In this document: positions 3,274-60,671 of the stretch, one piece after another
How the letters are laid out: each line of letters starts with the position of its first letter
Position numbering within the stretch: the stretch's first letter is position 1
Assembly (NCBI GenBank): GCA_016214745.1
Contig: JACRNW010000009.1
Coordinates: 1 to 60,671, forward strand
Direction of reading: 5' to 3'
From: Candidatus Falkowbacteria bacterium
GTDB taxonomy: Bacteria > Patescibacteriota > Patescibacteriia > XYB2-FULL-38-15
Length of the DNA: 60,671 bases
Made by a program: the position numbers and the translations under genes
Notes under the pieces: generated by a model
Database searches by the model: none
What the model was told of the DNA's origin: nothing
The model's input: the letters and a program-made list of their open reading frames with translations, nothing else

Positions 3274-3340
3274 AAATACTCCGTGTTCTCTGCGCTCGCT
3301 CGTCCCGCCCTGGCGGGATCTCACTCGTTTGATAATAAAA
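3274..3340. repeat. copy 1 of a 3-copy conserved element with a variable central hairpin
   Basis: The sequence is AAATACTCCGTGTTCTCTGCGCTCGCTCG, then TCCCGCC-CT-GGCGGGA, then TCTCACTCGTTTGATAATAAA. It aligns to 24033..24099 and 58251..58324. Confidence 0.85.
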
Positions 3341-3371
3341 AAAGCGCCGAAAGCAGTGATGCTCGCGGCGC
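3337..3371 (-). terminator. intrinsic terminator of the Cys-rich ORF
   Basis: The minus strand reads GCGCCG...CGGCGC followed by TTTTTTT. Confidence 0.55.
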
Positions 3372-3481
3372 CCGACACGACAAGTCGGACTTGTGTCTTC
3401 CCTCCCTACTTCTTCCTATCGGAAACTTCCGGCACCTAGTGCAGGAGCAAAAACGCTCGGCCGACGCAGCGCAGGCAGCCG

Positions 3482-3733
3482 CTACGCGGCGCGGCTCATC
3501 CTCTTTGCCCGCTTCTTCGGCTGCCGAGCCAAGAGCGCCGCGCCATCCGCGGTCGCCTCGCCCAGCATCCAGGGCTCGAGTTCCACCTTGGGCAAGAACT
3601 GCATGCCGCCGCACTTGCCGCAGACCCCGCCATGCTGAATGCAAGCGCAACATCCGCACTTCCCGCTGCACCCACAGTGGTCGCAGGGAATTCCCTTGGC
3701 CGCGACTTCTCCAAGTATTCTCCTCGTCGACAT
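3482..3733 (-). CDS. Cys-rich small protein (83 aa), unknown family
   Basis: GGAGAGAGGAGAG lies upstream of the ATG. The protein has a CDHCGCSGKCGCCACIQHGGVCGKCGG core, and the ORF sits in a GC-rich island. Confidence 0.6.
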   Translation of the reverse strand: MSTRRILGEVAAKGIPCDHCGCSGKCGCCACIQHGGVCGKCGGMQFLPKVELEPWMLGEATADGAALLARQPKKRAKRMSRAA

Positions 3734-3804
3734 TCTCTCCTCTCTCCTTCCCTTTCCCCCGGGTTAACACTGGTTCCCGATCCCGTGCCAAACACAATAT
3801 CAAT

Positions 3805-19147: not shown

Positions 19148-19219
19148 GCTCCCATAGCTCAATGGATAGAGCGCAGGCCTCCGAAGCCTGAAATGGCTGT
19201 TCGAATCAGCCTGGGAGCA
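19148..19219 (+). tRNA. tRNA-Arg(CCG)
   Basis: The acceptor is GCTCCCA/TGGGAGC, the anticodon loop CTCCGAA and the T-loop TTCGAAT. No CCA is encoded. It is followed by the terminator AAAAAACCGCGGTTTTTTT. Confidence 0.9.
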
Positions 19220-19245
19220 GTAAAAAACCGCGGTTTTTTTATAGT

Positions 19246-19273
19246 AAAAAAAGAGTGGGCCATTGGTCCACTC
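19246..19273 (-). terminator. intrinsic terminator of the 19291..19509 ORF
   Basis: The minus strand reads GAGTGGACC-aat-GGCCCACTCTTTTTTT. Its sequence is related to the terminator at 59630..59661. Confidence 0.55.
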
Positions 19274-19290
19274 GCCCCCCGCTCTGCGCT

Positions 19291-19509
19291 TCAGTGATGT
19301 TGTCTGGGATCGTAAAAGCCGCCCGGCGGCCACGGCATGATGCTGGCCACACTTCCTTTCTTGTTCTCCTGCCACTCATTCCACCAGTGCGAAAACGTCT
19401 GCCAGACGAAATCGGCCAACGCACCCGGCAGCCGAACTGGCATGAGCGCCAAGTTGACGACACTGCCGAACATCTTCCGGAGTTCCTCTACCCCTTTTCC
19501 CAAATCCAT
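19291..19509 (-). CDS. small Trp-rich protein (72 aa), unknown family
   Basis: A strong GGAGGAGG lies 6 nt upstream of the ATG. The ORF is GC-rich and has its own promoter and terminator. Confidence 0.6.
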   Translation of the reverse strand: MDLGKGVEELRKMFGSVVNLALMPVRLPGALADFVWQTFSHWWNEWQENKKGSVASIMPWPPGGFYDPRQHH

Positions 19510-24011: not shown

Positions 24012-24032
24012 TTTGAGAAAGGGTTTTAAACC

Positions 24033-24099
24033 CTGTGTTATCTGCGCTCGCTCGGAAAAGTAAATAAATTTACTTTTCACTCACTCGCTTGATAATAAA
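24033..24099. repeat. copy 2 of the 3-copy conserved element
   Basis: The sequence is CTGTGTTATCTGCGCTCGCTCG, then GAAAAGTAAAT-AA-ATTTACTTTTC, then ACTCACTCGCTTGATAATAAA. Its right end overlaps the stop of the GT4 gene. Confidence 0.85.
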
Positions 24100-29214: not shown

Positions 29215-29444
29215 ATATATTAGGTAATAAAGATGATGCCCTAAAATTTATCCGAGTAACTGTAAGCCGGATTCTGTGCCTTGCCCAACTTTTGATTGGG
29301 CAAGCGGTAGTCATCTATCTAGGATTTTGATTGCTCAAAACCTCAAGCGGCTGTTTTTGGCCTTGCACCGGATAGGTGTTTTCCCCAGCGCCCGTCACCG
29401 GGCTGTCCTGCGTGAGCTCTTACCTCACGATTTAACCCTTGCCT

Positions 29445-29520
29445 CCCCCACTTACCTTGGCATAAATCTCTCGCATTTTTATCTACCATCAAAACCAATT
29501 CATGCCAAAGTAAGTGGGGG
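29445..29520. repeat. CCCCCACTTAC-clamped hairpin at the P12 position of rnpB
   Basis: The arms are CCCCCACTTACCTTGGCAT...ATGCCAAAGTAAGTGGGGG. Confidence 0.8.
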
Positions 29521-29660
29521 ATCGGCGGTATGTTTCTGTTGCACTGTCCGTGGGCTTGGTCACTTGATGTTCGATTAAAGCTGCACCTTCCGCGTAAACG
29601 GAAGACACAACACACAAACAGAAATGCTTACTCCCCGTCGCTGTTAGCGACTATCTCTCT

Positions 29661-29714
29661 CCCCCACTTACTTTGACATAAATTATCGACGATTAATGTC
29701 AAGGTAAGTGGGGG
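29661..29714. repeat. CCCCCACTTAC-clamped hairpin inside rnpB
   Basis: The arms are CCCCCACTTACTTTGACAT...ATGTCAAGGTAAGTGGGGG. Confidence 0.8.
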
Positions 29715-29733
29715 ACGGTGTCCGGACTTTCCT

Positions 29734-30028
29734 CCCCCCACTTATTAAGCCTCATTCAAACTATGTCTCAATCTTTCCCTGATTCTGCGATAACCCTGTT
29801 TAAACATCTTTAATTTCCGCTCCCTGTCCCGTGCGTCTTTTGATGATTTATATGCTTCATAATAAACCAACTCAAATGGAGCACCGCTCTTCGTGGATTT
29901 AGATTGTTTCTTGTTATGTTCTTCTAGCCGCCTTCTCAAATCAGAAGTAAAACCAATATATAATTTTCCATTAATTTTACTTCTAAGAATGTAGCAATAA
30001 TGCATAACAAGGCTTAATAAGTGGGGGG
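29734..30028. repeat. CCCCCCACTTATTAAGCC-clamped hairpin at the P3 position of rnpB, enclosing the GIY-YIG ORF
   Basis: The 18-nt arms at 29734..29751 and 30011..30028 are perfectly complementary. Confidence 0.85.
29745..30005 (-). CDS. GIY-YIG nuclease superfamily protein (UPF0213/YhbQ-like, 86 aa)
   Basis: The protein reads MHYCYILRS..GKLYIGFTSDLRRRLEEHN...YYEAY.S..DARDRERKLK. It has the same orientation as rnpB, and its stop codon lies within the hairpin arm. Confidence 0.8.
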   Translation of the reverse strand: MHYCYILRSKINGKLYIGFTSDLRRRLEEHNKKQSKSTKSGAPFELVYYEAYKSSKDARDRERKLKMFKQGYRRIRERLRHSLNEA

Positions 30029-37627: not shown

Positions 37628-38245
37628 ATGATTGAAATACGCTTGCACGGCCGGGGCGGCCAAGGCACGGTCACGGCGGCCGAATTGATTGCCGAAGCGG
37701 CTTTCCAGGACGGGAAATTTTCTCAAGCTTTTCCTTCTTTTGGCATTGAACGGCGTGGCGCGCCAGTCGAAGCCTTTGCCCGGATTTCCGATAAACCAAT
37801 TACTTTACATTCAAAAATATACGAACCGGATTATTTGATTATCCAAGACTCAACGCTCATTAATTTAGATCTTGTCCGGCAAGGAGTCGGCCCAAAAACC
37901 TTTATCATTATTAATACTGAAAAGAGCGCCGCTGATTTTAAAAAAATCTTTGAAAAAAATACTATTCAAACTATTCCGGCGACGCAAATCGCGCTCGCGA
38001 TTTTAGGAAAACCTATTATTAACACCATTTTGCTTGGCGCTTTTGCGGGCGTTTGCGGTTTGCTTAATCCCGCCTCTTTAACCTCGGCCATCTCGGCCCG
38101 TTTTAAAAAAGAAATTGCCGAAAAAAATATCAAGGCCATGAATACCGCCTATTGCCACTGCAGCTCAAATTCCGAGTATTGTTTCACGGCGGAAAAATGT
38201 ACGATAGCCGTAGACGGCGGGCAAAAATTTTCCGTCACTTGCTGA
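37628..38245 (+). CDS. porG: pyruvate/2-oxoacid:ferredoxin oxidoreductase gamma subunit
   Basis: It has the HGRGGQGTVTAAELIAEAAF motif. Confidence 0.9.
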   Translation: MIEIRLHGRGGQGTVTAAELIAEAAFQDGKFSQAFPSFGIERRGAPVEAFARISDKPITLHSKIYEPDYLIIQDSTLINLDLVRQGVGPKTFIIINTEKSAADFKKIFEKNTIQTIPATQIALAILGKPIINTILLGAFAGVCGLLNPASLTSAISARFKKEIAEKNIKAMNTAYCHCSSNSEYCFTAEKCTIAVDGGQKFSVTC

Positions 38246-38294
38246 TCCTAAGGATCCTGAGGATCGTAAGGATCTTAAAGATCCTGAGGATAAT
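38244..38294. repeat. 9-bp-periodic array GATCCTAAG GATCCTGAG GATCGTAAG GATCTTAAA GATCCTGAG GATAAT
   Basis: This is read directly between the porG stop and the porD start. It contains five GATC sites at exact 9-bp spacing. Confidence 0.9.
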
Positions 38295-38635: not shown

Positions 38636-39004
38636 ATGGATAATTCTTACTCAAAAACTTTTCGACAATTAGTAGTTTGGCAAGAAGCAAAAAAGTTATG
38701 CTTAAATATTTATAGAATAACAAAAAATTTCCCTCAAGAAGAAGTATACGCCCTGGTTTCCCAACTAAGAAGATCTGCCTATTCTGTCTTGGCAAACATC
38801 GCCGAGGGCAATGAGCGCAAGGGTATTAAAGACCGTCTAAATTTTTTTAATATTGCGAGGGGTTCATTGGTGGAATTAGATTGTCTCTTAGAATTATCAT
38901 TTGACCTCAATTATTTAAATGAAAAGGATTATAAAAATTTGTTAGAAAAAATAAATAAAGTGGCATATCTATTAAATAAATTCATCGTCGCTCAAAAATC
39001 CTAA
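38636..39004 (+). CDS. four-helix-bundle protein of the 23S rRNA intervening-sequence protein (S23p/Avd-like) family
   Basis: The pattern is FRQLVVWQEAKKL...VSQLRRSAYSVLANIAEGNER...FFNIARGSLVELDCLLE. Confidence 0.8.
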   Translation: MDNSYSKTFRQLVVWQEAKKLCLNIYRITKNFPQEEVYALVSQLRRSAYSVLANIAEGNERKGIKDRLNFFNIARGSLVELDCLLELSFDLNYLNEKDYKNLLEKINKVAYLLNKFIVAQKS

Positions 39005-39038
39005 GTATCGTAAATATCTTAAAAATCGTAAAGATCCT
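39002..39038. repeat. degenerate 9-bp-periodic array (TAAGTATCG TAAATATCT TAAAAATCG TAAAGATCC)
   Basis: This is read directly, just upstream of the porA ATG. Confidence 0.75.
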
Positions 39039-40187
39039 ATGCTAAAATTCATGGAAGGCTCGCGCGCCATCGCCGAAACCGTGAAACTCTGCCGCCCCGA
39101 CGTGGTCGCCGCCTATCCAATTACTCCCCAAACTCATATCTTGGAAAATCTGGCCGAATTTAAGGCGGAGGGCCAGGCTAATTTTGAATACTTAAAAACG
39201 GAAAGCGAAATGGCCGCGGCTTCAGCCGTGCTGGGAGCAAGCGCCGCGGGCGCGAGAGTTTACACAGCCTCGGCCTCACAGGGATTGCTTTTGATGACCG
39301 AAGTTTTATTTAACATTGCCGGTATGCGTTTGCCGGTTGTGATGACTTGCGCTAACCGCGCCGTTTCCGCTCCGATAAATATTTGGAACGACGAACAAGA
39401 CGCGATGACGCTTCGGGACGCCGGCTGGATGATGTTTTTCGCCGAGGACAATCAAGAAGCGGCCGATCTTCATATTCTCTCTTACAAAATTGCCGAGGCG
39501 ACAAATCTTCCCGTTATGGTTTGTATGGATGGTTTTAGTCTGACTCACACTTTTGAACCGGTGGAAATTCGCGATCAAAAATTAGTTGATAAATTTTTGC
39601 CTCGGCGCAAACTGATTTCCGGCCAATATTTAAATCCCCAGAATCCAATAACCCTGGGCGGAATTTCTTCGCCGGAAAATTATATGCCCGCGCGGGAAAA
39701 ATTACATCAAGACCTAATAGACAGTAAAAAAATGATTCAAAAATTTTTTACTGAATTTAATAAATTATTTATAAAAAGAAAAAATTACAACGGCTTTATT
39801 GAATATTCCGGACCGCGTAACCCCAAACTGATGATTATTGCCATGGGTTCGGTTCTGGGAACCGCGAAAACTATTCTAAACAAAGAAAAACTTTCCGATA
39901 AAGTCGGCGTTTTAAAAATTAAATGTTTCCGCCCCTTTCCCGACGCCGAAATTTCAAAAATAATTTTGAGTATCAGGCCAAAACACATCGCCGTAGTTGA
40001 CCGAGCTGTTTCCTTGGGGCAAGGCGGAATTTTAGCCGGCGAAATAAAAAATCTTTGCCCCATCGGTATGGTTTCAAATTTCATTGTGGGTCTTGGCGGC
40101 AGAGATATTACTCCGGAACATATTGAAAAAATTGTAAAACTAAGTCTAAATGATAAAGCTTGCACGACGCGGTTTTATGATAAATAA
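39039..40187 (+). CDS. porA: pyruvate:ferredoxin oxidoreductase alpha subunit
   Basis: It has the AAYPITPQTHILE motif, and its 382-aa length fits. Confidence 0.9.
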   Translation: MLKFMEGSRAIAETVKLCRPDVVAAYPITPQTHILENLAEFKAEGQANFEYLKTESEMAAASAVLGASAAGARVYTASASQGLLLMTEVLFNIAGMRLPVVMTCANRAVSAPINIWNDEQDAMTLRDAGWMMFFAEDNQEAADLHILSYKIAEATNLPVMVCMDGFSLTHTFEPVEIRDQKLVDKFLPRRKLISGQYLNPQNPITLGGISSPENYMPAREKLHQDLIDSKKMIQKFFTEFNKLFIKRKNYNGFIEYSGPRNPKLMIIAMGSVLGTAKTILNKEKLSDKVGVLKIKCFRPFPDAEISKIILSIRPKHIAVVDRAVSLGQGGILAGEIKNLCPIGMVSNFIVGLGGRDITPEHIEKIVKLSLNDKACTTRFYDK

Positions 40188-42264: not shown

Positions 42265-43194
42265 ATGAACCAAAAATACAAAAATCCTTTTAATCATCTT
42301 CTCGCTCCGGGTCATCGCGGCTGTGCTGGCTGCGGCGAACTTTTAGCCGCGCGGCACGTAATTAACGCTCTCGGGAAAGATACGATTGTTGTTTGCGCCA
42401 CCGGCTGTCTTGAAGTGACGACTACTCCCTCGCCCGAATCTTCCTGGAAAATTCCCTGGATTCATTCGCTGTTTGAAAACGCTCCATCAGTCGCCTCCGG
42501 CATTTTAGCAGCCCTGCATACCAAAAATCATAAAAATCTTAAAGATCATAACAATCCTAAAAATCCTATCAACGTTGCGGTCTTCGGCGGCGATGGTTCA
42601 ACTTTTGATATTGGCTTTGGCGCTCTTTCCGGCCTTTGGACGCGGCGGGAAAATATTATTTATGTCTGCTTTGATAATGAAGCCTACATGAATACTGGCA
42701 ATCAATATTCGGCGGCGACGCCATTTGGCGCGGCCACCACGACTTCTCCTTCAGACACGACCATTTTTGGCAATGATTTTTTTAAAAAAGATCTCCCGGC
42801 GATCGCCGCCGCCCACGGCGTTTCCTATATCGCGACTTCAACTATCGGTTTTCCTGAAGACATCACGGCCAAAATTAAAAAGGCCTTGACTTTTTCCGGT
42901 CCAAAATATATCCAAATTCTTGTCGGCTGCGTACCAGGCTGGGGGTATGAATCAGAATTAACCGTTTCGCTTTGCCGCCTGGCCGCCCAATCCGGCCACT
43001 ATCCGGTTTTTGAAATGGAAAATGGAAAAATCACCAAGACCATGAAAATCCCGCAAAATAAACCCCCGGTTGAAGAATATTTAAAACTGCAAAAAAGATT
43101 TTCCCATCTTTTTAAAACTGATGAAGGCAAAAAACGAATTGCCTCCTTACAAAGAATGGCTGAAGAAAATATTAAAAAATACCAATTGAAGTAA
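42265..43194 (+). CDS. porB: pyruvate:ferredoxin oxidoreductase beta subunit (TPP-binding)
   Basis: It has GHRGCAGCGE and GGDGSTFDIGF motifs. An in-frame 9-nt repeat insert lies at 42522..42570. Confidence 0.9.
   Translation: MNQKYKNPFNHLLAPGHRGCAGCGELLAARHVINALGKDTIVVCATGCLEVTTTPSPESSWKIPWIHSLFENAPSVASGILAALHTKNHKNLKDHNNPKNPINVAVFGGDGSTFDIGFGALSGLWTRRENIIYVCFDNEAYMNTGNQYSAATPFGAATTTSPSDTTIFGNDFFKKDLPAIAAAHGVSYIATSTIGFPEDITAKIKKALTFSGPKYIQILVGCVPGWGYESELTVSLCRLAAQSGHYPVFEMENGKITKTMKIPQNKPPVEEYLKLQKRFSHLFKTDEGKKRIASLQRMAEENIKKYQLK
42522..42570. repeat. 9-nt-periodic repeat inside porB (CAAAAATCA TAAAAATCT TAAAGATCA TAACAATCC TAAAAATCC)
   Basis: It encodes KNHKNLKDHNNPKNP. The unit is the same as in the intergenic arrays. 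Confidence 0.75.
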
Positions 43195-52177: not shown

Positions 52178-53449
52178 TTAAAACAAACTTTCCTGCTTTA
52201 TCTTTTTCTTTTCTTTATCATTAAAAAGTCTCACGGTCCCATAAACGCCGTCGTAACCCGGCTCAATTTTTACTTTTCCCTCGCGATTCCGGCGAATGGC
52301 TTCTACAATTTCAGGCAAGGTAATTTTGGCTAATTCTTCATAAGATAAATCCAAAAGCACCCGGAATTCACTGCCGCCTTTTGCGATTAAATTATCGTAC
52401 TCGCGCGTTACGGCCTTAGTCCGCCGGCCGAAAACTCCGAGCGCCTCGGCAATCGCATCATCCAAACCCACTAAACTTTTATAATCAATCGCGTTTCCCG
52501 GCCGCTCGCCTTCCGGACGATCTGCCAATTCTTCCACTCGGTTTAACACGCCGACAGTTACCGGCCGGCCGCAAACCGGACAAATCCCTTTTCGTTTTCG
52601 CGTCTCTTCCGGCGTCATTCTGATTTTGCAAGCTCGATGGCCGTCAAAATGATACATTCCCTCTTCGGGATAAAACTCAACTGTGTATAAAAATTTTTTC
52701 TTATCCTTCTCTTTAATAATCCGGCAAATTTCATCGTAAAAATTTTTCACGCCATCGCCAATTTCAAAAGCGTCTGCTTCTCTTCCGATATTTTCCGGCG
52801 AATGCGCGTCTGAATGAGAAACCAAAGTAATCTTGTCCAATTTTTTTAATCGCCAATTCATTGCCGGATCTGAAGAGAGCCCGGTTTCCACGGCATAAAT
52901 TTTTGGCGTAAGCTCATCAAAACATTCTTCAAGCGAGTCAAATCCTGATTTTGAACCAAACACCGCAAACCACGGCGTCCAAGCGTGCGCCGGAATTATC
53001 ATACATCGCTCATCAATTTCAAAAACAACCTCCGCAAGTTTTTTAGCATCCAATCCCAAAATTGGCCGGCCATCAGAAGCCAATTTTCCTAACGCTCCTA
53101 ATTTCTCGTTAATTTTCGCCGCAACCTCAAGCGTTGGTGCGAAAATTAAAATATGGAGGCGCCTGCACCGACCGCCTTTTGAATAAATACAACTTACCTC
53201 GGTAGAAATAAAAAAATAAACTGGCCGCGTAGCCTGTTCTTTATCTTCCGCCAATTCGTACAAACCGTTCGCCGCCAATTTTAATTTGCTTTTGAGTTCG
53301 GCAAACCACTTCGGGTGAGTGAAGTCGGCGCAAGAAACAATGTCCACGCCTTTTTTCCGGCACCAATCAACAATAATTTCCGGCACAAGGCGCGGCGAAC
53401 AAGCGCGAGAATATTTTGAGTGAATATGTAAATCGCTGATGTAGCGCAT
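52178..53449 (-). CDS. endonuclease Q-like PHP-domain protein
   Basis: It has the N-terminal DLHIHSKYSRACS motif, a PHP-type His/Asp pattern and a CPVCGRP zinc-knuckle. Confidence 0.6.
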   Translation of the reverse strand: MRYISDLHIHSKYSRACSPRLVPEIIVDWCRKKGVDIVSCADFTHPKWFAELKSKLKLAANGLYELAEDKEQATRPVYFFISTEVSCIYSKGGRCRRLHILIFAPTLEVAAKINEKLGALGKLASDGRPILGLDAKKLAEVVFEIDERCMIIPAHAWTPWFAVFGSKSGFDSLEECFDELTPKIYAVETGLSSDPAMNWRLKKLDKITLVSHSDAHSPENIGREADAFEIGDGVKNFYDEICRIIKEKDKKKFLYTVEFYPEEGMYHFDGHRACKIRMTPEETRKRKGICPVCGRPVTVGVLNRVEELADRPEGERPGNAIDYKSLVGLDDAIAEALGVFGRRTKAVTREYDNLIAKGGSEFRVLLDLSYEELAKITLPEIVEAIRRNREGKVKIEPGYDGVYGTVRLFNDKEKKKIKQESLF

Positions 53450-53459
53450 AAATGAATTT

Positions 53460-53510
53460 AAAGGATCCTAAAGATCTTAAAGATCTTAAAGATCGTAATG
53501 ATCCTCAGAA
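53460..53510. repeat. 9-bp-periodic array AAGGATCC TAAAGATCT TAAAGATCT TAAAGATCG TAATGATCC
   Basis: This is read directly between two minus-strand genes. It contains five GATC sites at 9-bp spacing. Confidence 0.9.
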
Positions 53511-53522
53511 TGGGCTGTTATC

Positions 53523-54495: not shown

Positions 54496-54665
54496 TTCAA
54501 GCTAAAAATGCTTGAAATTTTTTGTATGTTTGTATGTTTGAACAATTCTTGTGGTTAGAATCGACCTATTAGTACGGCTCGGCTCAAATCCTTACGGACC
54601 TTACACCTGCCGCCTATCAACCTTGTGTTCTTCAAGGGGTCTAAACGAAATTTAATCTTGAAACC

Positions 54666-54700
<35 letters not shown>

Positions 54701-54822
54701 TGCCGAACGTAGCTACCCAGCTATGCCCTTGGTAGGACAACTGGTACACTAGAGGTTCGTCCTTCCCGGTCCTCTCGTACTAGGGAAGAGTTTTCTCAAA
54801 TTTCCGCGCCCACGACAGATAG

Positions 54823-54874
<52 letters not shown>

Positions 54875-54887
54875 TGGCGAACAGCCA

Positions 54888-54957
<70 letters not shown>

Positions 54958-55671
54958 ATGGACTCTTGGGGGAGATCAGCCTGTTATCCCCGGAGTAGCT
55001 TTTATCCGTTGAGCTTCGACCATCCTATATTGGATCGTCGGATCACTAAGTTATGCTTTCGCAACTCAGCGACTTGTAAGTCTTTGAGTAAAGCTGGCTT
55101 GTGCCTTTACGCGTCCAGCCCGGTTTCCATCCGGGCTAAGCCAACCTTTGTAAACGCCTCCGTTACTTTTTAGGAGGCAACCGCCCCAGTTAAACTACCC
55201 ACCAGACACTGTCTCCCAAACCGGATTACGGTCTCGGATTAGAATTAAAATTAAACAAGGGTGGTGTCTCATTGGCGCCTTGCGGCTCCCACCTACGCTG
55301 AACATGTTTAGTCTTAATCCAATATCAAGTTGTAGTAAAGCTTCACGGGGTCTTTTCGTCTAGCCGTGGGTAAAGGGCATCTTCACCCCTCTTGCAATTT
55401 CACCGAGTCCCTCGTTAAGACAGTTCTCAAGTTGTTATGCCATTCGTGCGGGTCGGAACTCACCCGACAAGGGATTTCGCTACCTTAGGACGATTATAGT
55501 TATCGCCGGCGTTCATCAGCGCTTAAGTTCAAGGCTGCCCCGTCTTGCGACGGATGACCTCTCCCCTTAACGTTCTGACACTGGCCAGGCATCAGCCCCT
55601 ATACGTTGCCTTACGGCTTTGCAGGGACCTGTGTTTTTGGTAAACAGTCACTTGAGATATTTTTATTGCAA

Positions 55672-55802
55672 CCCCCCACATAACTTTCGATGCAAGTATT
55701 AAGATACTTGCCAAATCTTTGAAAGATTTTTCCGCGATTTATTCCGGAAACACTATAAATTTCACACTTTCTCTTTTCTTTTCTCGAAAGTTATGTGGGG
55801 GG
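55672..55802. repeat. CCCCCCACATAACTTTCGA ... TCGAAAGTTATGTGGGGGG hairpin expansion in 23S (helix 63 region)
   Basis: The 19-nt arms are perfect. The element lies between GGGATAAGCCTTG and TTGCAATAAAAATATCTCAAGTGACTGTTTACC on the rRNA strand. Confidence 0.8.
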
Positions 55803-57000
55803 CAAGGCTTATCCCGAAGTTACGCCTAGTTTTTTTGCTTAGTTCCTAAACGAGGGTTCTCTCGTACACCTTAGGCTTCCCGCCTTGTCCACCTGTGTCG
55901 GTTTACGGTACGGTCTCCGTATCTTTAGCGCCCATAAGATTTTCTAGGCCCCTACTTTGCAAGAATCGGCTCCACCTTGCGGCTTCACCTGCGAACCGTC
56001 CACGATAAATCGGAACGGCCCAAGCGCATAACCAAATCGCTCTCTTACCACATAGAAGCGCACTTACGGACAAAAATACGGAGGTGCAGGAATATTAACC
56101 TGCTCTTCCATCGGCTACGCCTTTCGGCCTCGCCTTAGGATCGACTAACCCTGGGTCGATTTGCGTTGCCCAGGAAACCTTAGACTATCGGTGCTCTGAG
56201 TTTTCATCAGAGTTTTTGTTACTTATGCCAACATTCTCACTTCTCAAGCCTCCACCGCTCCTTACGGATACGACTTCGCTGACTTGAGAAAGCTCCCCTA
56301 CCGCTCTCCGATAAATCGGAGAACCCGTGCCTTCGGTACCGAATTTAGTCCCGATTATTTTCGACGCAGAAAAACTCGACTAGTGAGCTGTTACGCTTTC
56401 TTTAAAGGATGGCTGCTTCTAAGCCAACCTCCTAGTTGTTTGAGTCTTTCCACCACCTTTAACACTTAATTCGGATTTAGGGACCTTAAGCGACGATCTG
56501 GGCTGTTTCCCTTTTGACTAGTGAAGCTTAGCCCTCACAGTCTGACTCCCGGACTAAAAACATAGTATTCGGAGTTTGATTGGTGCAATCGACTTTCGCC
56601 GAATTGAACCATTCAGTGCTCTACCCCTATATTGTATATCCGAGGCTAGCCCTACAGCTATTTCGGGGAGAACCAGCTATTACCGAGTTCGATTGGAATT
56701 TCACCTCTAGCCACAACTCATCCCCATGTGTTGCACAGCATGTGGGTTCGGGCCTCCAGTCCGATTTCTCGGACCTTCACCCTGGTCATGGCTAGCTCAC
56801 CCGGTTTCGGGTCTCGTGTGCGCGACAAACGCCCTATTAAGGCTCGCTTTCACTTCGGCTTCCTCTCCATGGGAGATTAACCAAGCCACGCACAGCAAAC
56901 TCGTTGGCTCATTCTTCAATAGGAACGCTGCAACCCTTGCGGGCCGCAACTCCTTGTAAGCGTATGGTTTCAGGTACTTTTCATCGGCCTAACCGGCCTG

Positions 57001-57037
<37 letters not shown>

Positions 57038-57400
57038 ATCACTAAAAAATATTTAGTCTTGGCACATAGTCGTGCCGGATTCCCACGGGATTTCACGAGG
57101 CCCGTGGTACTTAAGTCAATCACAGCAAGATTACAGCTCCTTTTGAGTACAGGACTTTCACCTTCTCTGGTCCCTGTTTCCACAGGAGTTCTTCTAGGAA
57201 AGCTGTCCCGATTGCTCGGGCTTTTCCCTTGCCTGTCTTATTGGGAAGACAACGCGACTGACTCGCGTATCCTTGTTAGCAACGGCCCAAACCTTTAATT
57301 AGCAGCGGCCGAGAAGTCTTGCGACCCCCCGACCATCCGCTAAAACACTAACAAGGTTTTCGACTTTTCCCCGTTCGCTCGCCACTACTTGGGGAATGGG

Positions 57401-57496
57401 CTAGTTAATAAGTTTATAAGTTCATCAGCCAGTAAATAAATACCGACCAACTTAAGTTCCGCAAAACGGAACGAAACTTATAAACTTAAAAACTAG
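57401..57496. repeat. AT-rich hairpin expansion in 23S domain I
   Basis: The arms are CTAGTTAATAAGTTTATAAGTT...AACTTATAAACTTAAAAACTAG. It is inserted between GGAAAAGAAACAAAG and ATTCCCCAAGTAGTGGCGAGCGAAC on the rRNA strand. Confidence 0.75.
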
Positions 57497-58250
57497 TCTT
57501 TGTTTCTTTTCCTCCGGTTACTGAGATGTTTCACTTCACCGGGTTGCCTTCGCTACCCTATGAATTCAGATAGCGATGATCCGATCTTCAATCGGACCGG
57601 GTTACCCCATTCGGAAATCTCCGGATCAAAGGTTGCTTGCCACCTCCCCGAAGCTTATCGCAGGCTACTACGTCCTTCATCGTTTTTTAGTGTCTAGGCA
57701 TCCACCATACGCCCTTATATCTAACCACAAGAATTGTTAAAACATACATTTTACAATTCTCATTTTTATGTTGGCTCTCTTTACTTTGTTGTTGGGTATA
57801 TAAGATGCTCTTTTATTCAATTGTTAATGAACAATTTTTTTCTGTTTCTCGCCTCTCGTTTTATTTAGAAACCAGAGGCGGGAGCAAAAAATAATTTTTT
57901 GAAAAAGGACTAAAAAACCGCTCTTTTCGAGCGGCTTGGTACGACCAAAAAATGGGTTAACCGCTCGGGAACTTAAAAGTTAAAACTTGTTTTACCATAT
58001 TTTGCCCAATATCAGAGGAAAATCGTCAGATGTAGTTCTGGATAAAATGTGGACAACTTCCTCTGTTTTCTTAGTACATTAGTATTTTAATACCATCTAA
58101 AAAAGCTGTCAACCCCGTTAGAAATCTGTTTAATATTTTACAAAGTTATTTTAAAAAGTCAAGCCGGGATTAATATTCTCAATCTGCACAAAAAAATTTT
58201 ATTTAAAATTTTTTCTCAAAGATTTCTAACGGGGTCAAGAGGATTTAAAT

Positions 58251-58324
58251 AAATACTCCGTGTTATCTGCGCTCGCTCGAAAATGAAATTAAAATTTCAT
58301 TTCTCTCACTCGCTTGATAATAAA
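58251..58324. repeat. copy 3 of the 3-copy conserved element
   Basis: The sequence is AAATACTCCGTGTTATCTGCGCTCGCTCG, then AAAATGAAATT-AA-AATTTCATTT, then CTCTCACTCGCTTGATAATAAA. Confidence 0.85.
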
Positions 58325-58369
58325 AAAGAACCGGCAGGATCGTCGCTTTCTAAGCAACTTTCCTGCCGG
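58322..58369 (-). terminator. intrinsic terminator of 58390..59325
   Basis: The minus strand reads CCGGCAGGA...TCCTGCCGG followed by TTCTTTTTT. Confidence 0.55.
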
Positions 58370-58389
58370 CGTTCTCTACCTCCTTCGGG

Positions 58390-59325
58390 CTATCCCCCGG
58401 CGCCGCACACCCGTCCGACGATCTCGCAAGCCGCAGGCTGGGTGAGCGTCTCGCGTGCGCCGAACATCGTGCCCGGAGCGCCCACCGGAGCCATGGCGGC
58501 AAGCCGACCGCTCAGCCACTTACGGATTGCTTGCGCCTGATCGGATTTGATGAAGCGCTTCGTGGCATCGATGCGTCCGATCGCCTCCGCGATCACCGAA
58601 AGCGCGTCTTCCCTCTGCCGACATGCCGTCTTCCACTTGCCCTCAAGCTCCTCGGCCCGCTTCTTCGCCTCGTCGCGCTCGGCCATGAGTCGCTTGATGT
58701 CCACGAGCATCACACTAGCCCGCAAGATCCACTCGTACACACGGTCGTCAATGAAGTAATACTCGCAGAAGTCGAGGGCGGTTCCGATGTCAGGCGTAAT
58801 CGAGTGGTTCTCGGCGTCAACGAGCGTCACGTGCGGAGAAAGGGCGTTCCGCCAAGGGTCCGATGGAAGCCTGACTTTCCAACCCTGAGCTTGGCCCACC
58901 TCGTTGAAGCGATGACGGTACACACAGCCCCAGGAGTTGAACCAACCGCCGAGCGGAACCTTGATGACCGGACACTTCAGGAAAACGGCGTACTCGTCCT
59001 CTTTCTCGCCACGCCGCGTGAATGAGACTTGGATCTTCTGCTCTTCGTCGCGCCAGTACCAGGCGTTGTAGCCCTTGACGTTCCGCCACCAGTAGTCGCG
59101 GAGCCATCTGATCGGGTGTCGAACACCGATGATCTCAGCCAACATCAGGATGGTTACAAGACCCAGGATGATGCCCCCGCGCATTACCCACTTCTCTTTG
59201 TCCAGGTCATAATGGACAATGACCCAGAGCACCGTCGCGCTCAGCAGGAACAGCAAAGGGAAAACCAACAACTTCAGCCCGCCCTTGGGAATCGGCCGAT
59301 ACTTCTGGACTTCCTGCAGATCCAT
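58390..59325 (-). CDS. membrane protein (311 aa; two N-terminal TM segments, Trp-rich region, C-terminal coiled coil), unknown family
   Basis: The start MDLQEVQKYRP is preceded by AAGGAGA. The ORF is GC-rich, and the longest ORF extends to 59397. Confidence 0.65.
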   Translation of the reverse strand: MDLQEVQKYRPIPKGGLKLLVFPLLFLLSATVLWVIVHYDLDKEKWVMRGGIILGLVTILMLAEIIGVRHPIRWLRDYWWRNVKGYNAWYWRDEEQKIQVSFTRRGEKEDEYAVFLKCPVIKVPLGGWFNSWGCVYRHRFNEVGQAQGWKVRLPSDPWRNALSPHVTLVDAENHSITPDIGTALDFCEYYFIDDRVYEWILRASVMLVDIKRLMAERDEAKKRAEELEGKWKTACRQREDALSVIAEAIGRIDATKRFIKSDQAQAIRKWLSGRLAAMAPVGAPGTMFGARETLTQPAACEIVGRVCGAGG

Positions 59326-59390
59326 GACTCGTTCTCCTTTCCGATCCCGACACTCTGGTCGTGGATGGGTGGCGCGGCGGGACAACCTTT

Positions 59391-59414
59391 CCCCCACTTA
59401 CTAGTAAGTGGGGG
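59391..59414. repeat. perfect 24-nt palindrome CCCCCACTTAC-TA-GTAAGTGGGGG
   Basis: It is identical to the stem sequence of the rnpB hairpins. It lies in the leader of 58390..59325. Confidence 0.9.
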
Positions 59415-59524
59415 ACTATTTGTCCGGACCGCCAAAGAGATATGCCAGGCCCATCCTGGCCACGTTTTTAATTTTTAATTTTGATAAAAAAGTCAAGGCC
59501 AAAATCCCCTGGCGCTTCGCGCTG

Positions 59525-59583
59525 CCCCCTTTGCAAAAGGGGGAAAAATTCTCTCCCTTTTCTAAAGGGAGAGTTAGAGAGGG
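59525..59583. repeat. G/C-rich palindromic elements CCCCCTTTGC-AAAAGGGGG and CTCTCCCTTT-tct-AAAGGGAGAG + TTAGAGAGGG
   Basis: This is read directly. The architecture matches 25957..26077 and 51504..51534. Confidence 0.7.
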
Positions 59584-59629
59584 ATTTTTGTTTTTTGTAT
59601 ATTTGTAATTAATTTGTAATTTGTAGAAT

Positions 59630-59661
59630 AAAAAAAGTGGGCCACCCCGAAGGTTTCCCAC
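59630..59661 (-). terminator. intrinsic terminator of the three-gene unit
   Basis: The minus strand reads GTGGGAAACC-ttcg-GGGTGGCCCAC followed by TTTTTTT. Confidence 0.55.
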
Positions 59662-59711
59662 TATGTCCCTCCCTCCTCGCTTTTTGATTGGCTCTAAGGC
59701 CAAGAGACTTA

Positions 59712-59921
59712 TTATTGCCGGCAGATCCACTTGCTCCTGACCCAGGCCAAGAGAGCCACGACTGCGAGCGCCACCGTGACGGCGAGGCCAAGGGCAAAGG
59801 CGATCTGGTCCTCTGCCCCAAGGATGAACGCGAAGACAATCGCAGCCACTCCTCCAAGAAGCGCGATAGTCGCGTCCTTCCCGCCCGCCGATCGTTCCTT
59901 CCAAAACCGGATGAACCCCAT
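59712..59921 (-). CDS. two-TM miniprotein (69 aa)
   Basis: GGGAGGA lies upstream. The TM segments are IALLGGVAAIVFAFILGA and FALGLAVTVALAVVALLAWV. Confidence 0.6.
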   Translation of the reverse strand: MGFIRFWKERSAGGKDATIALLGGVAAIVFAFILGAEDQIAFALGLAVTVALAVVALLAWVRSKWICRQ

Positions 59922-59955
59922 CAGCTGTCCTCCCTAACCATCACCGCGGGTTGCG

Positions 59956-60135
59956 TTACTCTTCGTAGCGCTTCTTCGCGTCGCGCCAAGCGAACACGAT
60001 CGCCGCCGTGATGAAGACGAGAAAGAGAACGACGAGCGGAATGCCGCCCGACAGCTCGAGCTTGACGCGCGGCAGACCGGCGGCGATACAAATCGCCGCG
60101 AGGACGAGACAGATCACCGACAGAACTTTTTCCAT
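59956..60135 (-). CDS. two-TM miniprotein (59 aa)
   Basis: AAGGAGGGG lies upstream. Its ATG overlaps the upstream TAA as TAATG. Confidence 0.6.
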   Translation of the reverse strand: MEKVLSVICLVLAAICIAAGLPRVKLELSGGIPLVVLFLVFITAAIVFAWRDAKKRYEE

Positions 60136-60434
60136 TACCCGCCCCTCCTTGCCCTCACGGCTCCCCAGTTCTGATCGCGCCAGTTCTTGAGCGCTTCGCC
60201 ATGCTCCCAAAACCGGAACAGAGCGATCATCACATGGGCGACTTGAGAATTCGAAACTCGCAAGATCGGATCGTCGATTGTTTTCTCGACGATATCCTCC
60301 AGTCGCAATCCTTGGTTGAGCTTCGCTTCCATCCGGTCTGCCCATCGTTCCGCGTAGTTCAGGAGACGAAGCTCGTATCTCCCGGAATTTGCCGCGCGAA
60401 ACCTCTGCCAGAACACCCCATCTTTCACTTTCAT
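60135..60434 (-). CDS. soluble 99-aa protein, unknown family
   Basis: AGAGGAGG lies upstream of the ATG. It is the first gene after the promoter at 60466..60494. Confidence 0.6.
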   Translation of the reverse strand: MKVKDGVFWQRFRAANSGRYELRLLNYAERWADRMEAKLNQGLRLEDIVEKTIDDPILRVSNSQVAHVMIALFRFWEHGEALKNWRDQNWGAVRARRGG

Positions 60435-60465
60435 CTCTTACCTCCTCTTACTCCGGTAATCAAAA

Positions 60466-60494
60466 ATGTTAATACTATTTTTATTAAAAGTCAA
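60466..60494 (-). promoter_or_regulatory. sigma70-like promoter TTGACT-N17-TAACAT (minus strand)
   Basis: The hexamers read on the reverse complement. Confidence 0.45.
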
Positions 60495-60503
60495 GAGACA
60501 AAC

Positions 60504-60534
60504 AAAAAACAGAAATTTTTAGTTTCTGTTTTTT
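60504..60534. terminator. bidirectional terminator
   Basis: The sequence is AAAAAACAGAAA-tttttag-TTTCTGTTTTTT. Confidence 0.65.
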
Positions 60535-60570
60535 GGTGCAGAAATATTAACCTTTGCGCGAACCTTTTTC

Positions 60571-60629
60571 CAATCGCGGAGCGATTGACTTTCCGCCAGA
60601 GGCGGACAGGCACACGCGCCGAGCGCGTG
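60571..60629. repeat. array of three GC hairpins including TCCGCC-aga-GGCGGA
   Basis: The hairpins are CAATCGC-gga-GCGATTG, TCCGCC-aga-GGCGGA and CACGCGC-cga-GCGCGTG. Confidence 0.5.
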
Positions 60630-60671
60630 GTGGCTTGAAACCCAATCGTACGCGCGGAGTATCTGCCAACG

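Follow-up and report, generated by a model that had tools for sequence, protein, structure and literature searches.

The 60,671-base contig JACRNW010000009.1 of a Candidatus Falkowbacteria bacterium (assembly GCA_016214745.1), which is the window analyzed here, contains near its end a GC-rich block of four minus-strand genes organized in two promoter-to-terminator units. The block is the local form of an accessory locus that is conserved between tRNA-Leu(UAG) and the promoter of the 23S ribosomal RNA (rRNA) in a clade of Patescibacteria. Unit A (module A) encodes P0001, a member of the Tad4 family of Thoeris inhibitors, followed by two very small proteins with two transmembrane (TM) segments each, P0002 and P0003; unit B (module B) encodes the membrane protein P0004 behind a structured leader RNA. 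The four genes are referred to as the cassette, and related loci from other assemblies are denoted by L numbers. From the contig end inward, the features are as follows:

60503–60541, minus strand: GCACCA, a copy of the tRNA 3' tail (60539–60534), then a 13-bp hairpin and a T-run (comparison with L001; hairpin from scan)
60466–60494, minus strand: unit A promoter, TTGACT-N17-TAACAT (promoter scan; block TTGACTTTTAATAAAAATAGTATTAAC identical in L001)
60135–60434, minus strand: P0001, soluble Tad4-family protein of 99 residues (open reading frame, ORF; GGAGG ribosome-binding site)
59956–60135, minus strand: P0002, mini two-TM protein of 59 residues, "family a" (its ATG overlaps the TAA stop of P0001 as TAATG, translational coupling)
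59712–59921, minus strand: P0003, mini two-TM protein of 69 residues, "family b" (ORF and hydropathy)
59630–59661, minus strand: intrinsic terminator of unit A, GTGGGAAACCTTCGGGGTGGCCCAC and then T7 (sequence reading; same hairpin in L004)
59497–59629, no strand: AT-rich spacer with several small palindromes (sequence reading)
59466–59496, minus strand: unit B promoter, -35 TTGACT with a degenerate -10 (TATAAT in L001; sequence comparison)
59326–59465, minus strand: structured 5' leader RNA of P0004 (RNAalifold, covariance model)
59391–59414, no strand: CCCCCACTTACTAGTAAGTGGGGG hairpin or palindrome, the apical (fourth) stem of the leader (pattern search)
58390–59325, minus strand: P0004, membrane protein of 311 residues (ORF, family profile, AlphaFold2 model)
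58322–58369, minus strand: intrinsic terminator of unit B, CCGGCAGGA...TCCTGCCGG and then a T-run (sequence reading)
58251–58324, 24026–24099 and 3274–3345, no strand: copies of a 70-nucleotide (nt) repeat (pattern search; core at 58272, 24047 and 3295; 0 expected by chance)
58084–58112, minus strand: 23S rRNA promoter, TTGACA-N17-TAAAAT, the downstream frame of the locus (scan; conserved in L001 and L004)
54549–57728, minus strand: 23S rRNA, adjoining the block and followed by 5S on the same strand

Hydropathy analysis reveals no hydrophobic stretch in P0001 and two each in P0002, P0003 and P0004, and the C-terminus of P0002 is charged. This is in line with the initial annotation of this DNA, which had proposed for unit A a promoter, a 99-residue soluble protein, a 59-residue protein coupled through TAATG, a 69-residue two-TM protein and a terminator, and for unit B an AT-rich spacer, a leader with a palindrome, a 311-residue two-TM protein, a terminator and a flanking repeat; ORFs, hydropathy, the promoter scan, pattern search and reading of the sequence bear out both descriptions, with all four genes on the minus strand. 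The unit B promoter was not flagged by a simple promoter scan, and neither terminator was listed by a simple hairpin scan. The unit B terminator is kept in L001 and L004, and the same terminator closes unit A in L010. The spacer between the units has a metagenome depth of 13–24 compared with ~4, and its repeats are therefore common to other genomes. The two units are self-contained expression modules in conserved AT-rich frames (promoter, leader, terminators and small repeats), and promoters, leader and terminators are conserved among relatives at least as well as the coding parts.

In composition, the block stands out from its surroundings: the G+C content is 0.55–0.66 over 58250–60350, with sharp edges to 0.30–0.36 just outside, compared with 0.442 for the whole contig. 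The initial annotation had likewise described about 2.1 kb of GC-rich DNA beside rRNA genes, which here are the adjoining 23S and 5S (there is no 16S within the window). The G+C content at third codon positions (GC3) is 0.66–0.78 in the four cassette genes and 0.432 ± 0.031 in the 24 other genes of the window, which places the cassette 7–11 standard deviations above the core genes. The shift is one of codon choice, with ATC used at 81% in the cassette versus 24% in the core genes, and TTA at 0% versus 23%; furthermore, the cassette proteins are enriched in Arg, Ala and Trp, the latter constituting 4.3% of residues as compared with 1.3% in the core genes. The further neighbors in the window are housekeeping genes, i.e., those for an NTP-transferase, archease, RtcB, the CCA-adding enzyme, a pseudouridine synthase, CMP kinase and UvrA.

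The sequence is present in three runs, all of groundwater metagenome DNA, and no RNA-seq run contains the locus. Our data do not lend support to a mis-join at the boundaries, a possibility that the initial annotation had raised, and the explanation that the block is an assembly chimera, with the fragment of a GC-rich organism joined to a low-GC contig, can be regarded as effectively refuted and is given next to no probability. In two samples, unitigs run across the upstream boundary without a single mismatch (59857–60514 and 59892–60561), and the depth is equal on either side of it (~4.3 in run X2). The assembly is of low coverage (depth ~4), the contig terminates in a high-depth repeat and the 22 bases 58312–58333 are not spanned by any single unitig, all of which would suit a chimera, but the junction of terminator, 70-nt element and 23S promoter is kept in the independent NCBI assembly L004, and the same junctions appear in independent assemblies from NCBI, JGI, ENA and Logan.

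The contig end itself is unusual in that the last ~140 bases (60534–60671) have a depth of 548–1172, i.e., 100–300 times the value of ~4 in the block, and take the place of the tRNA-Leu(UAG) that relatives carry there; no tRNA was detected at the window end. Homology with the relatives resumes exactly at GCACCA, where the intact tRNA-Leu(UAG) ends in those genomes. The contig end has the appearance of a widespread repeat or element that was inserted at the 3' end of the tRNA and that probably broke the assembly. Folding of this end was uninformative (z = -1.2).

Six distinct arrangements that include the upstream flank were found in relatives (L001/2, L004/5, L006/7, L008, L010 and L020), and all show the same order, i.e., tRNA-Leu(UAG), sometimes a receiver-like protein, a Tad4-like protein, one or two mini-TM proteins and a P0004-like protein. 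Where the contigs reach far enough, the gene for PolX and that for a large LTD/PKD protein lie upstream of the tRNA (L001, L004/5, L006/7 and L008), and 23S, 5S, the NTP-transferase and an MJ0043_C protein lie downstream of the cassette (L001 and L004). The receiver-like protein, of 122–131 residues, is encoded by a GC-rich gene before the Tad4-like gene in some relatives (L004 8607–9002, L007 6440–6808) and is absent from the window; it resembles a receiver domain (…VVDDD…), with no significant match in Pfam.

The compositional contrast recurs in all relatives compared, in which GC3 is 0.63–0.81 in the cassette versus 0.37–0.47 in the flanks. The initial annotation had set conserved core genes of uniformly high GC against its own view of an island; the genes are indeed conserved in the lineage, yet in each genome the high GC does not extend beyond the cassette. 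The two parts also differ in their rates of change. Flank proteins share 65–94% identity, with a ratio of nonsynonymous to synonymous divergence (dN/dS) of 0.04–0.06 and a dS of 0.9–2.2, whereas cassette proteins share 27–67% identity with a dN/dS of 0.26–0.86 and a dS of 0.19–1.28 (0.19–0.73 for P0002, P0003 and P0004, and 0.91–1.28 for the Tad4-like gene), where dS was estimated by the Nei–Gojobori method (NG86), uncorrected for the strong GC3 bias. Selection on the cassette proteins would be relaxed or diversifying.

In a sliding comparison, the window is nearest to L001 in the 23S (~99%) and in the middle of P0004 (80–85%), shares P0003 with L004 (84–87%), and has the C-terminus of P0004 in common with both L001 and L004 (89–92%). 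The coding parts of the cassette hence evolve several-fold faster than their neighbors and form a mosaic of pieces from different relatives. Taken together, the mosaic similarity and the lower synonymous divergence relative to the flanks suggest exchange between lineages.

These comparisons also bear on the possibility of a recently acquired mobile genomic island or prophage remnant that came from a GC-rich donor and inserted at a tRNA gene, which we consider unlikely. The GC3 excess, the tRNA next to the site in relatives, the tRNA-tail copy GCACCA at the upstream edge and a cassette dS below that of the flanks would all be expected from such an import, as would the phage homologs of P0001 described below, among them those of Mycobacterium phages; on the other hand, the same site and gene order in at least six independent genomes, with cassette proteins that are just 27–67% identical, is at variance with a recent event. 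Neither the window nor the related loci yielded an integrase, recombinase or phage structural gene, in agreement with the initial annotation, which had noted no integrase or phage structural gene, and P0004 has no homolog in phages or viral contigs. The simple foreign island implied by that annotation is contradicted by a cassette that is syntenic in all relatives found, and by the more distantly related genome L019, in which a P0004 homolog of near-native GC occupies the same tRNA-Leu(UAG) site and carries the same leader.

A second variable slot adjacent to a tRNA was observed on comparing L004 (2000–4500) with L005 (2245–4800), where identical flanks enclose different content beside tRNA-Gly(GCC); in one strain the slot holds two unknown GC-rich genes (481 and 134 residues, G+C 0.57–0.66) and in the other an OPT transporter.

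P0001 is a member of the Tad4 family, as judged by its match to Pfam PF25186 ("Type I Thoeris inhibitor Tad4") with 68.6 bits and E 7.3e-19 (the curated cut-off is 25 bits) and to phrog_9822 in PHROGs with E 4e-14. The statement in the initial annotation that none of the families was recognized and that no known defence domain was seen therefore has to be revised, P0001 being an anti-Thoeris homolog. Its orthologs in five relatives score 63–74 bits against PF25186, compared with 93–146 bits for the phage members tested. A tblastn search returned 32 phage records, 29 of which are Bacillus phages, and the two examined are Herelleviridae; identity to P0001 is below 60% in all 32, and 27.5–32% over 91–99% of the length in the 30 matches listed. 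A word-based search with P0001 gave two homologs and a profile search 20, all with PF25186, and every named homolog in the latter set is from Patescibacteria. The gene is chromosomal and syntenic, and lies among housekeeping genes rather than in a phage.

The AlphaFold2 model of P0001 (predicted local distance difference test, pLDDT, 89) shows a small bundle of helices in which residues 49–61 form an exposed loop. A Foldseek search of BFVD places a protein of Mycobacterium phage Kumao on top (TM-score 0.82, root-mean-square deviation 1.7, 30% identity, probability 1.00), followed by two further phage matches with TM-scores of 0.73 and 0.72; we infer that these structural matches are Tad4-family members. 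Sequence and profile searches of the PDB with the Tad4-like and P0004 families gave nothing meaningful, and no solved Tad4 structure was found. Tad4 was reportedly described by Yirmiya and colleagues in Cell in 2025 as a phage inhibitor of ThsB in type I Thoeris. Reviews and a related study (PMC13728456, PMC13402655, bioRxiv 10.1101/2025.06.06.658234) state that Tad4 and the Thoeris TIR protein ThsB co-purify, that Tad4 relies on loop residues for which blockage of the TIR active site is predicted, and that it also antagonized one plant and one human TIR protein. No paper linking Patescibacteria with Tad4 was found in the literature searched, in which three viromics surveys mention Patescibacteria as well as Thoeris.

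The mini two-TM proteins constitute two families. In L004, L007 and L010, homologs of P0002 with 45–58% identity are found at the equivalent place in the operon, and P0003 is 84% identical to its homolog in L004, 65% identical to that in L008, and matches the N-terminal half of a 130-residue protein in L001. The order of the two families after the Tad4-like gene is preserved across loci, and module A is therefore a conserved triad.

P0004 defines a large protein family of its own. At 50% identity, its profile gathers 394 clusters, of which 231 have E ≤ 1e-10; nearly all are full-length at ~300 residues, and no Pfam domain is found in the family members. An exact look-up of P0004 gave no record; close homologs are few, and each named one is from Patescibacteria. 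No homolog was found in phage records or viral contigs, and a search for related loci with the P0004 alignment yielded one locus from GTDB, none from viruses and three from metagenomes.

The AlphaFold2 model of P0004, based on 46 sequences (pLDDT 85, pTM 0.69), comprises from the N-terminus a hairpin of two TM helices, a helix rich in Trp and Arg, a seven-stranded β domain with an invariant LGG(W) motif, a 55-residue helix (199–254), a conserved C-terminal helix (IDATKRFIKS) and a disordered tail. The initial annotation had noted a Trp-rich region and a coiled coil in this protein. From the positive-inside rule, as read from the sequence, the bulk of P0004 is predicted to lie on the cytoplasmic side. 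Foldseek searches of the PDB and BFVD with the model gave nothing at E ≤ 1e-3. A reading as a bacterial PH-domain protein (two TM helices, β-sandwich and helix) was considered and dropped, as no search supports it.

Genes of the P0004 family also occur with the leader and without Tad4 (L012, L015, L019, L021, L022 and L023), the distant members adjoining other housekeeping genes, and module B is therefore an independent, old unit. High GC travels with the family, as judged where neighbors can be compared: GC3 is 0.53 for the P0004-like gene in L022 versus 0.26–0.34 in its neighbors, 0.60 versus 0.46–0.49 in L012, and 0.76 versus 0.47 in L015.

The leader of P0004 is about 130 nt long (125–150 nt) and folds according to RNAalifold into five helices with a three-way junction and 35 base pairs. 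The closing helix pairs a 5' UCUCU with the Shine–Dalgarno sequence GGAGA, and this Shine–Dalgarno:anti-Shine–Dalgarno helix (helix 2) is 88.5% paired. A covariance model was built from eight leaders, and it matches all six loci that were not used in training (L015, L019, L020, L021, L022 and L023) with 28–140 bits and E-values from 5.6e-5 to 2.5e-29. The leader was found at 13 of 13 loci in the final search and at 15 distinct loci overall, each time upstream of a P0004-family gene; matches of the model elsewhere are few and weaker (E about 0.01 or worse), and either antisense or unconvincing. In the 13 leader sequences, 96.1% of cells are paired and both partners are changed in 27 of the 35 pairs, counts that are somewhat inflated because the alignment was fitted to the model. 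None of 500 shuffles reached these values, and slid controls are 35–46% paired. No Rfam family matches the leader, either at the gathering score or at E ≤ 5.

The structure of the leader and its exclusive association with the P0004 family are thus established, and the pairing of the ribosome-binding site in the fold model leads us to infer that the leader gates P0004 translation. A pseudoknot between the loop of the first hairpin and CCACCC was dropped, since it fits some leader sequences but not others. A CCCCCAC…GTGGGGG hairpin, the element represented by CCCCCACTTACTAGTAAGTGGGGG, takes the place of the apical stem in the leader of the window and in that of L008.

Inserts in the RNase P RNA are likewise enclosed by the CCCCCAC arms, and an insert in the 23S by a variant of them with one mismatch. 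The RNase P RNA (29247–29726) is 480 nt long, compared with a model of 367 positions, and contains three pairs of inverted CCCCCACTTA arms. The 23S insert of ~120 nt (55673–55801) has inverted CCCCCACATA arms, which are the one-mismatch variant of the arms in the leader and in the RNase P RNA (29445–30027); L001 and L004 lack this insert in their 23S, and the window 23S measures 3180 nt compared with ~3060 in relatives. In the 5' part of the 23S, the 105 bases 57398–57502 are replaced by ~9 nt in many high-depth contigs of other organisms from the same samples, which suggests a second segment resembling an intervening sequence, this one common to L001 and L004.

The initial annotation had, as a speculation, thought of holins or membrane toxins, and one could imagine a toxin, holin or abortive-infection module in which the Tad4-like protein is the antidote or sensor of membrane-damaging two-TM proteins and/or of P0004. 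The gene order with its TAATG overlap is like that of antitoxin–toxin pairs, P0002 combines two TM segments with a charged C-terminus, and a toxic product would suit sequestration of the Shine–Dalgarno sequence. However, Pfam, PHROGs and PADLOC give no match to a holin, lysin, toxin or defence family; the best PADLOC matches (E 0.02–0.07) were rejected, as they fall on TM or coiled-coil segments only, and no lysin, lysis or sensor genes were found nearby. The two TM helices and β-rich domain of P0004 loosely recall S-2TMbeta effectors of CBASS, but the structural similarity is not significant (BFVD rank 12 only, E 0.61, TM-score 0.20–0.25), and neither Pfam nor PADLOC connects P0004 with them. 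We therefore consider such a module quite improbable.

The 70-nt repeat is another component of the conserved frames. The initial annotation had placed copy 3 of a conserved element beside the unit B terminator, and the pattern search indeed finds three copies, that at 58251–58324 included, which occupies the same position in L004. All copies have conserved C/T-rich flanks (…GTGTTATCTGCGCTCGCTCG / CTCACTCGCTTGATAATAAA) around a central hairpin whose sequence varies from copy to copy while the pairing is kept. Two copies lie just 3' of GC-rich minus-strand cassettes and the third between two ordinary genes. A likeness to integron attC sites was considered and dropped, since only TTATC/GATAA can pair and the flanks have the same sense.

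Several other elements of the window were noted in passing. Between the 70-nt element and the 23S promoter there is an insert of ~125 bp (58113–58237) with 15-nt inverted repeats CCCCGTTAGAAATCT and a promoter-like TTGACT-16-TAAAAT of its own (58162–58135), which is absent from L004. Three more GC-rich islets (151–750, 3301–3800 and 19151–19500), with GC3 of 0.71–0.80, contain small ORFs without a family match, i.e., two paralogous Cys-rich ones of ~90 residues, one of 83 residues rich in CxxC, and one of 72 residues beside tRNA-Arg(CCG). Pfam searches with these islets and with the accessory genes of the relatives were uninformative. Arrays of a 9-nt unit (GATCNTAAR-like) are present at four or more sites (38245–38291, 38980–39044, 42509–42582 and 53447–53511).

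The reading we prefer, with a confidence slightly above an even chance, is that of a lineage-conserved, recombining accessory locus in which module A provides a putative TIR inhibitor and module B a leader-controlled membrane protein. By analogy with phage Tad4, module A is probably an inhibitor of TIR proteins or NADases with membrane partners. A sigma-70 promoter would drive the Tad4-family protein and the two translationally coupled mini two-TM proteins; P0001 may bind a TIR-type NAD-consuming enzyme, with the loop 49–61 plugging its active site, and the mini-TM partners may hold or deliver P0001 at the membrane. Candidate targets are TIR enzymes of the own cell, of the host bacterium or of a competitor. 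Module B would be a translationally controlled membrane protein: its separate promoter would yield an mRNA whose ~130-nt leader, with the three-way junction, hides the ribosome-binding site, and a signal, be it a ligand, a protein or temperature, would open the Shine–Dalgarno helix and allow translation of the membrane-anchored P0004, predicted to face the cytoplasm. Both the low dS and the GC-rich style would reflect cassette segments that were exchanged again and again between lineages, through recombination within the conserved frames, and not a single import of recent date.

Several observations weigh against this reading. P0001 matches only positions 1–96 of the 113 in PF25186 and hence falls short of full length; none of the Patescibacteria members compared has the phage tail (…NPALITITKK), and the loop reads TIDDPxLRLS in Patescibacteria versus …DGITGFMYG in phages. 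As both loop and tail differ from phage Tad4, the TIR-plugging mechanism may not be conserved. In addition, it is unusual for a phage counter-defence protein to be encoded on a chromosome in a vertically syntenic position. At tRNA-Leu(UAG) beside an LTD protein, L019 has a P0004-like gene that is barely GC-enriched (GC3 only 0.48 versus 0.42–0.45), and high GC is thus not universal in the family. Concerning the exchange between lineages, part of the low cassette dS could result from constraint on synonymous sites rather than from recent exchange, and the missing bias correction in dS and the inflation of the covariation counts, both given above, have to be borne in mind as well.

The difference in loop and tail also counts in favor of a repurposed Tad4 fold, an alternative to which we give a fairly low probability. 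The membrane proteins would then be the core of a hypervariable envelope or host-contact module, diversifying under pressure from the host or from phages, and the Tad4-like protein would serve as chaperone, regulator or adaptor without any link to TIR proteins. In line with this alternative, membrane proteins make up three of the four products, coupling of the Tad4-like gene to the same pair of mini-TM families is constant, the gene on the other side of the tRNA encodes a large LTD/PKD surface protein, and both the raised dN/dS and the mosaic similarity would be accounted for. However, the predicted orientation puts most of P0004 on the cytoplasmic side and hence not at the surface, and the sole family of known function at the locus points to TIR inhibition.

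Returning to the putative TIR inhibitor and leader-controlled membrane protein, a bolder version can be formulated, although it is highly speculative and has in our view very little chance of being right as a whole. The cassette would belong to a GC3-rich, recombining "second dialect" of conflict genes kept in fixed frames by ultra-small episymbionts, in which Tad4 was domesticated with two membrane partners against the NAD-based immunity of the host, of rivals or of the own cell, and in which the leader represents a new class of riboswitch that senses, e.g., an NAD-derived signal and switches on a membrane-anchored effector.

The locus unites a new cellular variant of a known anti-defence family, an uncharacterized protein family and a candidate new regulatory RNA. 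If our reading is true, a conserved chromosomal Tad4 homolog tied to two membrane proteins would suggest that cellular parasites, too, deploy or regulate TIR inhibitors. The leader, a candidate for a new regulatory RNA that sequesters the Shine–Dalgarno sequence, precedes a family of at least 394 clusters at 50% identity that is unannotated and has no known fold. Moreover, the locus presents a compositional paradox, with a conserved position, GC far above that of the genome, and proteins that change faster while synonymous sites change more slowly than those of the neighbors, and this bears on gene exchange in reduced genomes.

Compared with Tad4 proteins (PF25186), P0001 is of similar size (99 residues), scores well above the threshold of the family hidden Markov model, and shares the helical scaffold motifs YAERWA..ME and HW.HGE.LK.W; an exposed loop is likewise predicted between its helices, and phage proteins are the closest structural matches. 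It differs in being chromosomal and syntenic in a cellular lineage, whereas the phage members are phage-borne, in its constant coupling to two mini two-TM proteins, in the divergent loop and the absence of ~15 C-terminal residues, and in lower profile scores (63–74 versus 93–146 bits for the phage members tested). With phage holin/lysis cassettes and small membrane toxins the locus has in common small two-TM proteins in series, one with a charged C-terminus; in contrast to lysis cassettes, there is no family match and no endolysin or spanin at the locus, and the triad with the Tad4-like gene is conserved in cellular chromosomes.

The P0004 leader resembles leaders that sequester the Shine–Dalgarno sequence, i.e., translational riboswitches, ribosomal-protein leaders and RNA thermometers, in its conserved, covarying structure directly upstream of one gene family and in a helix that joins the ribosome-binding site to an upstream anti-Shine–Dalgarno segment, but it has no Rfam family and its apical stem tolerates the invasive CCCCCAC hairpin. 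Islands and prophages integrated at tRNA genes have a recombinase and leave empty sites in relatives, whereas here no recombinase was found near the block or in the related loci, and all relatives found carry the cassette. With hypervariable chromosomal loci, such as those for O-antigen and capsule or the tRNA-adjacent hot spots of defence and anti-defence genes, the locus shares a fixed position, conserved frames, divergent mosaic coding content and atypical composition. It differs from these in its tiny size of 2.2 kb, in gene families that stay constant while their sequences are shuffled, and in a GC3 shift toward higher values within a genome of low GC, which is seen again for the same family at other loci.

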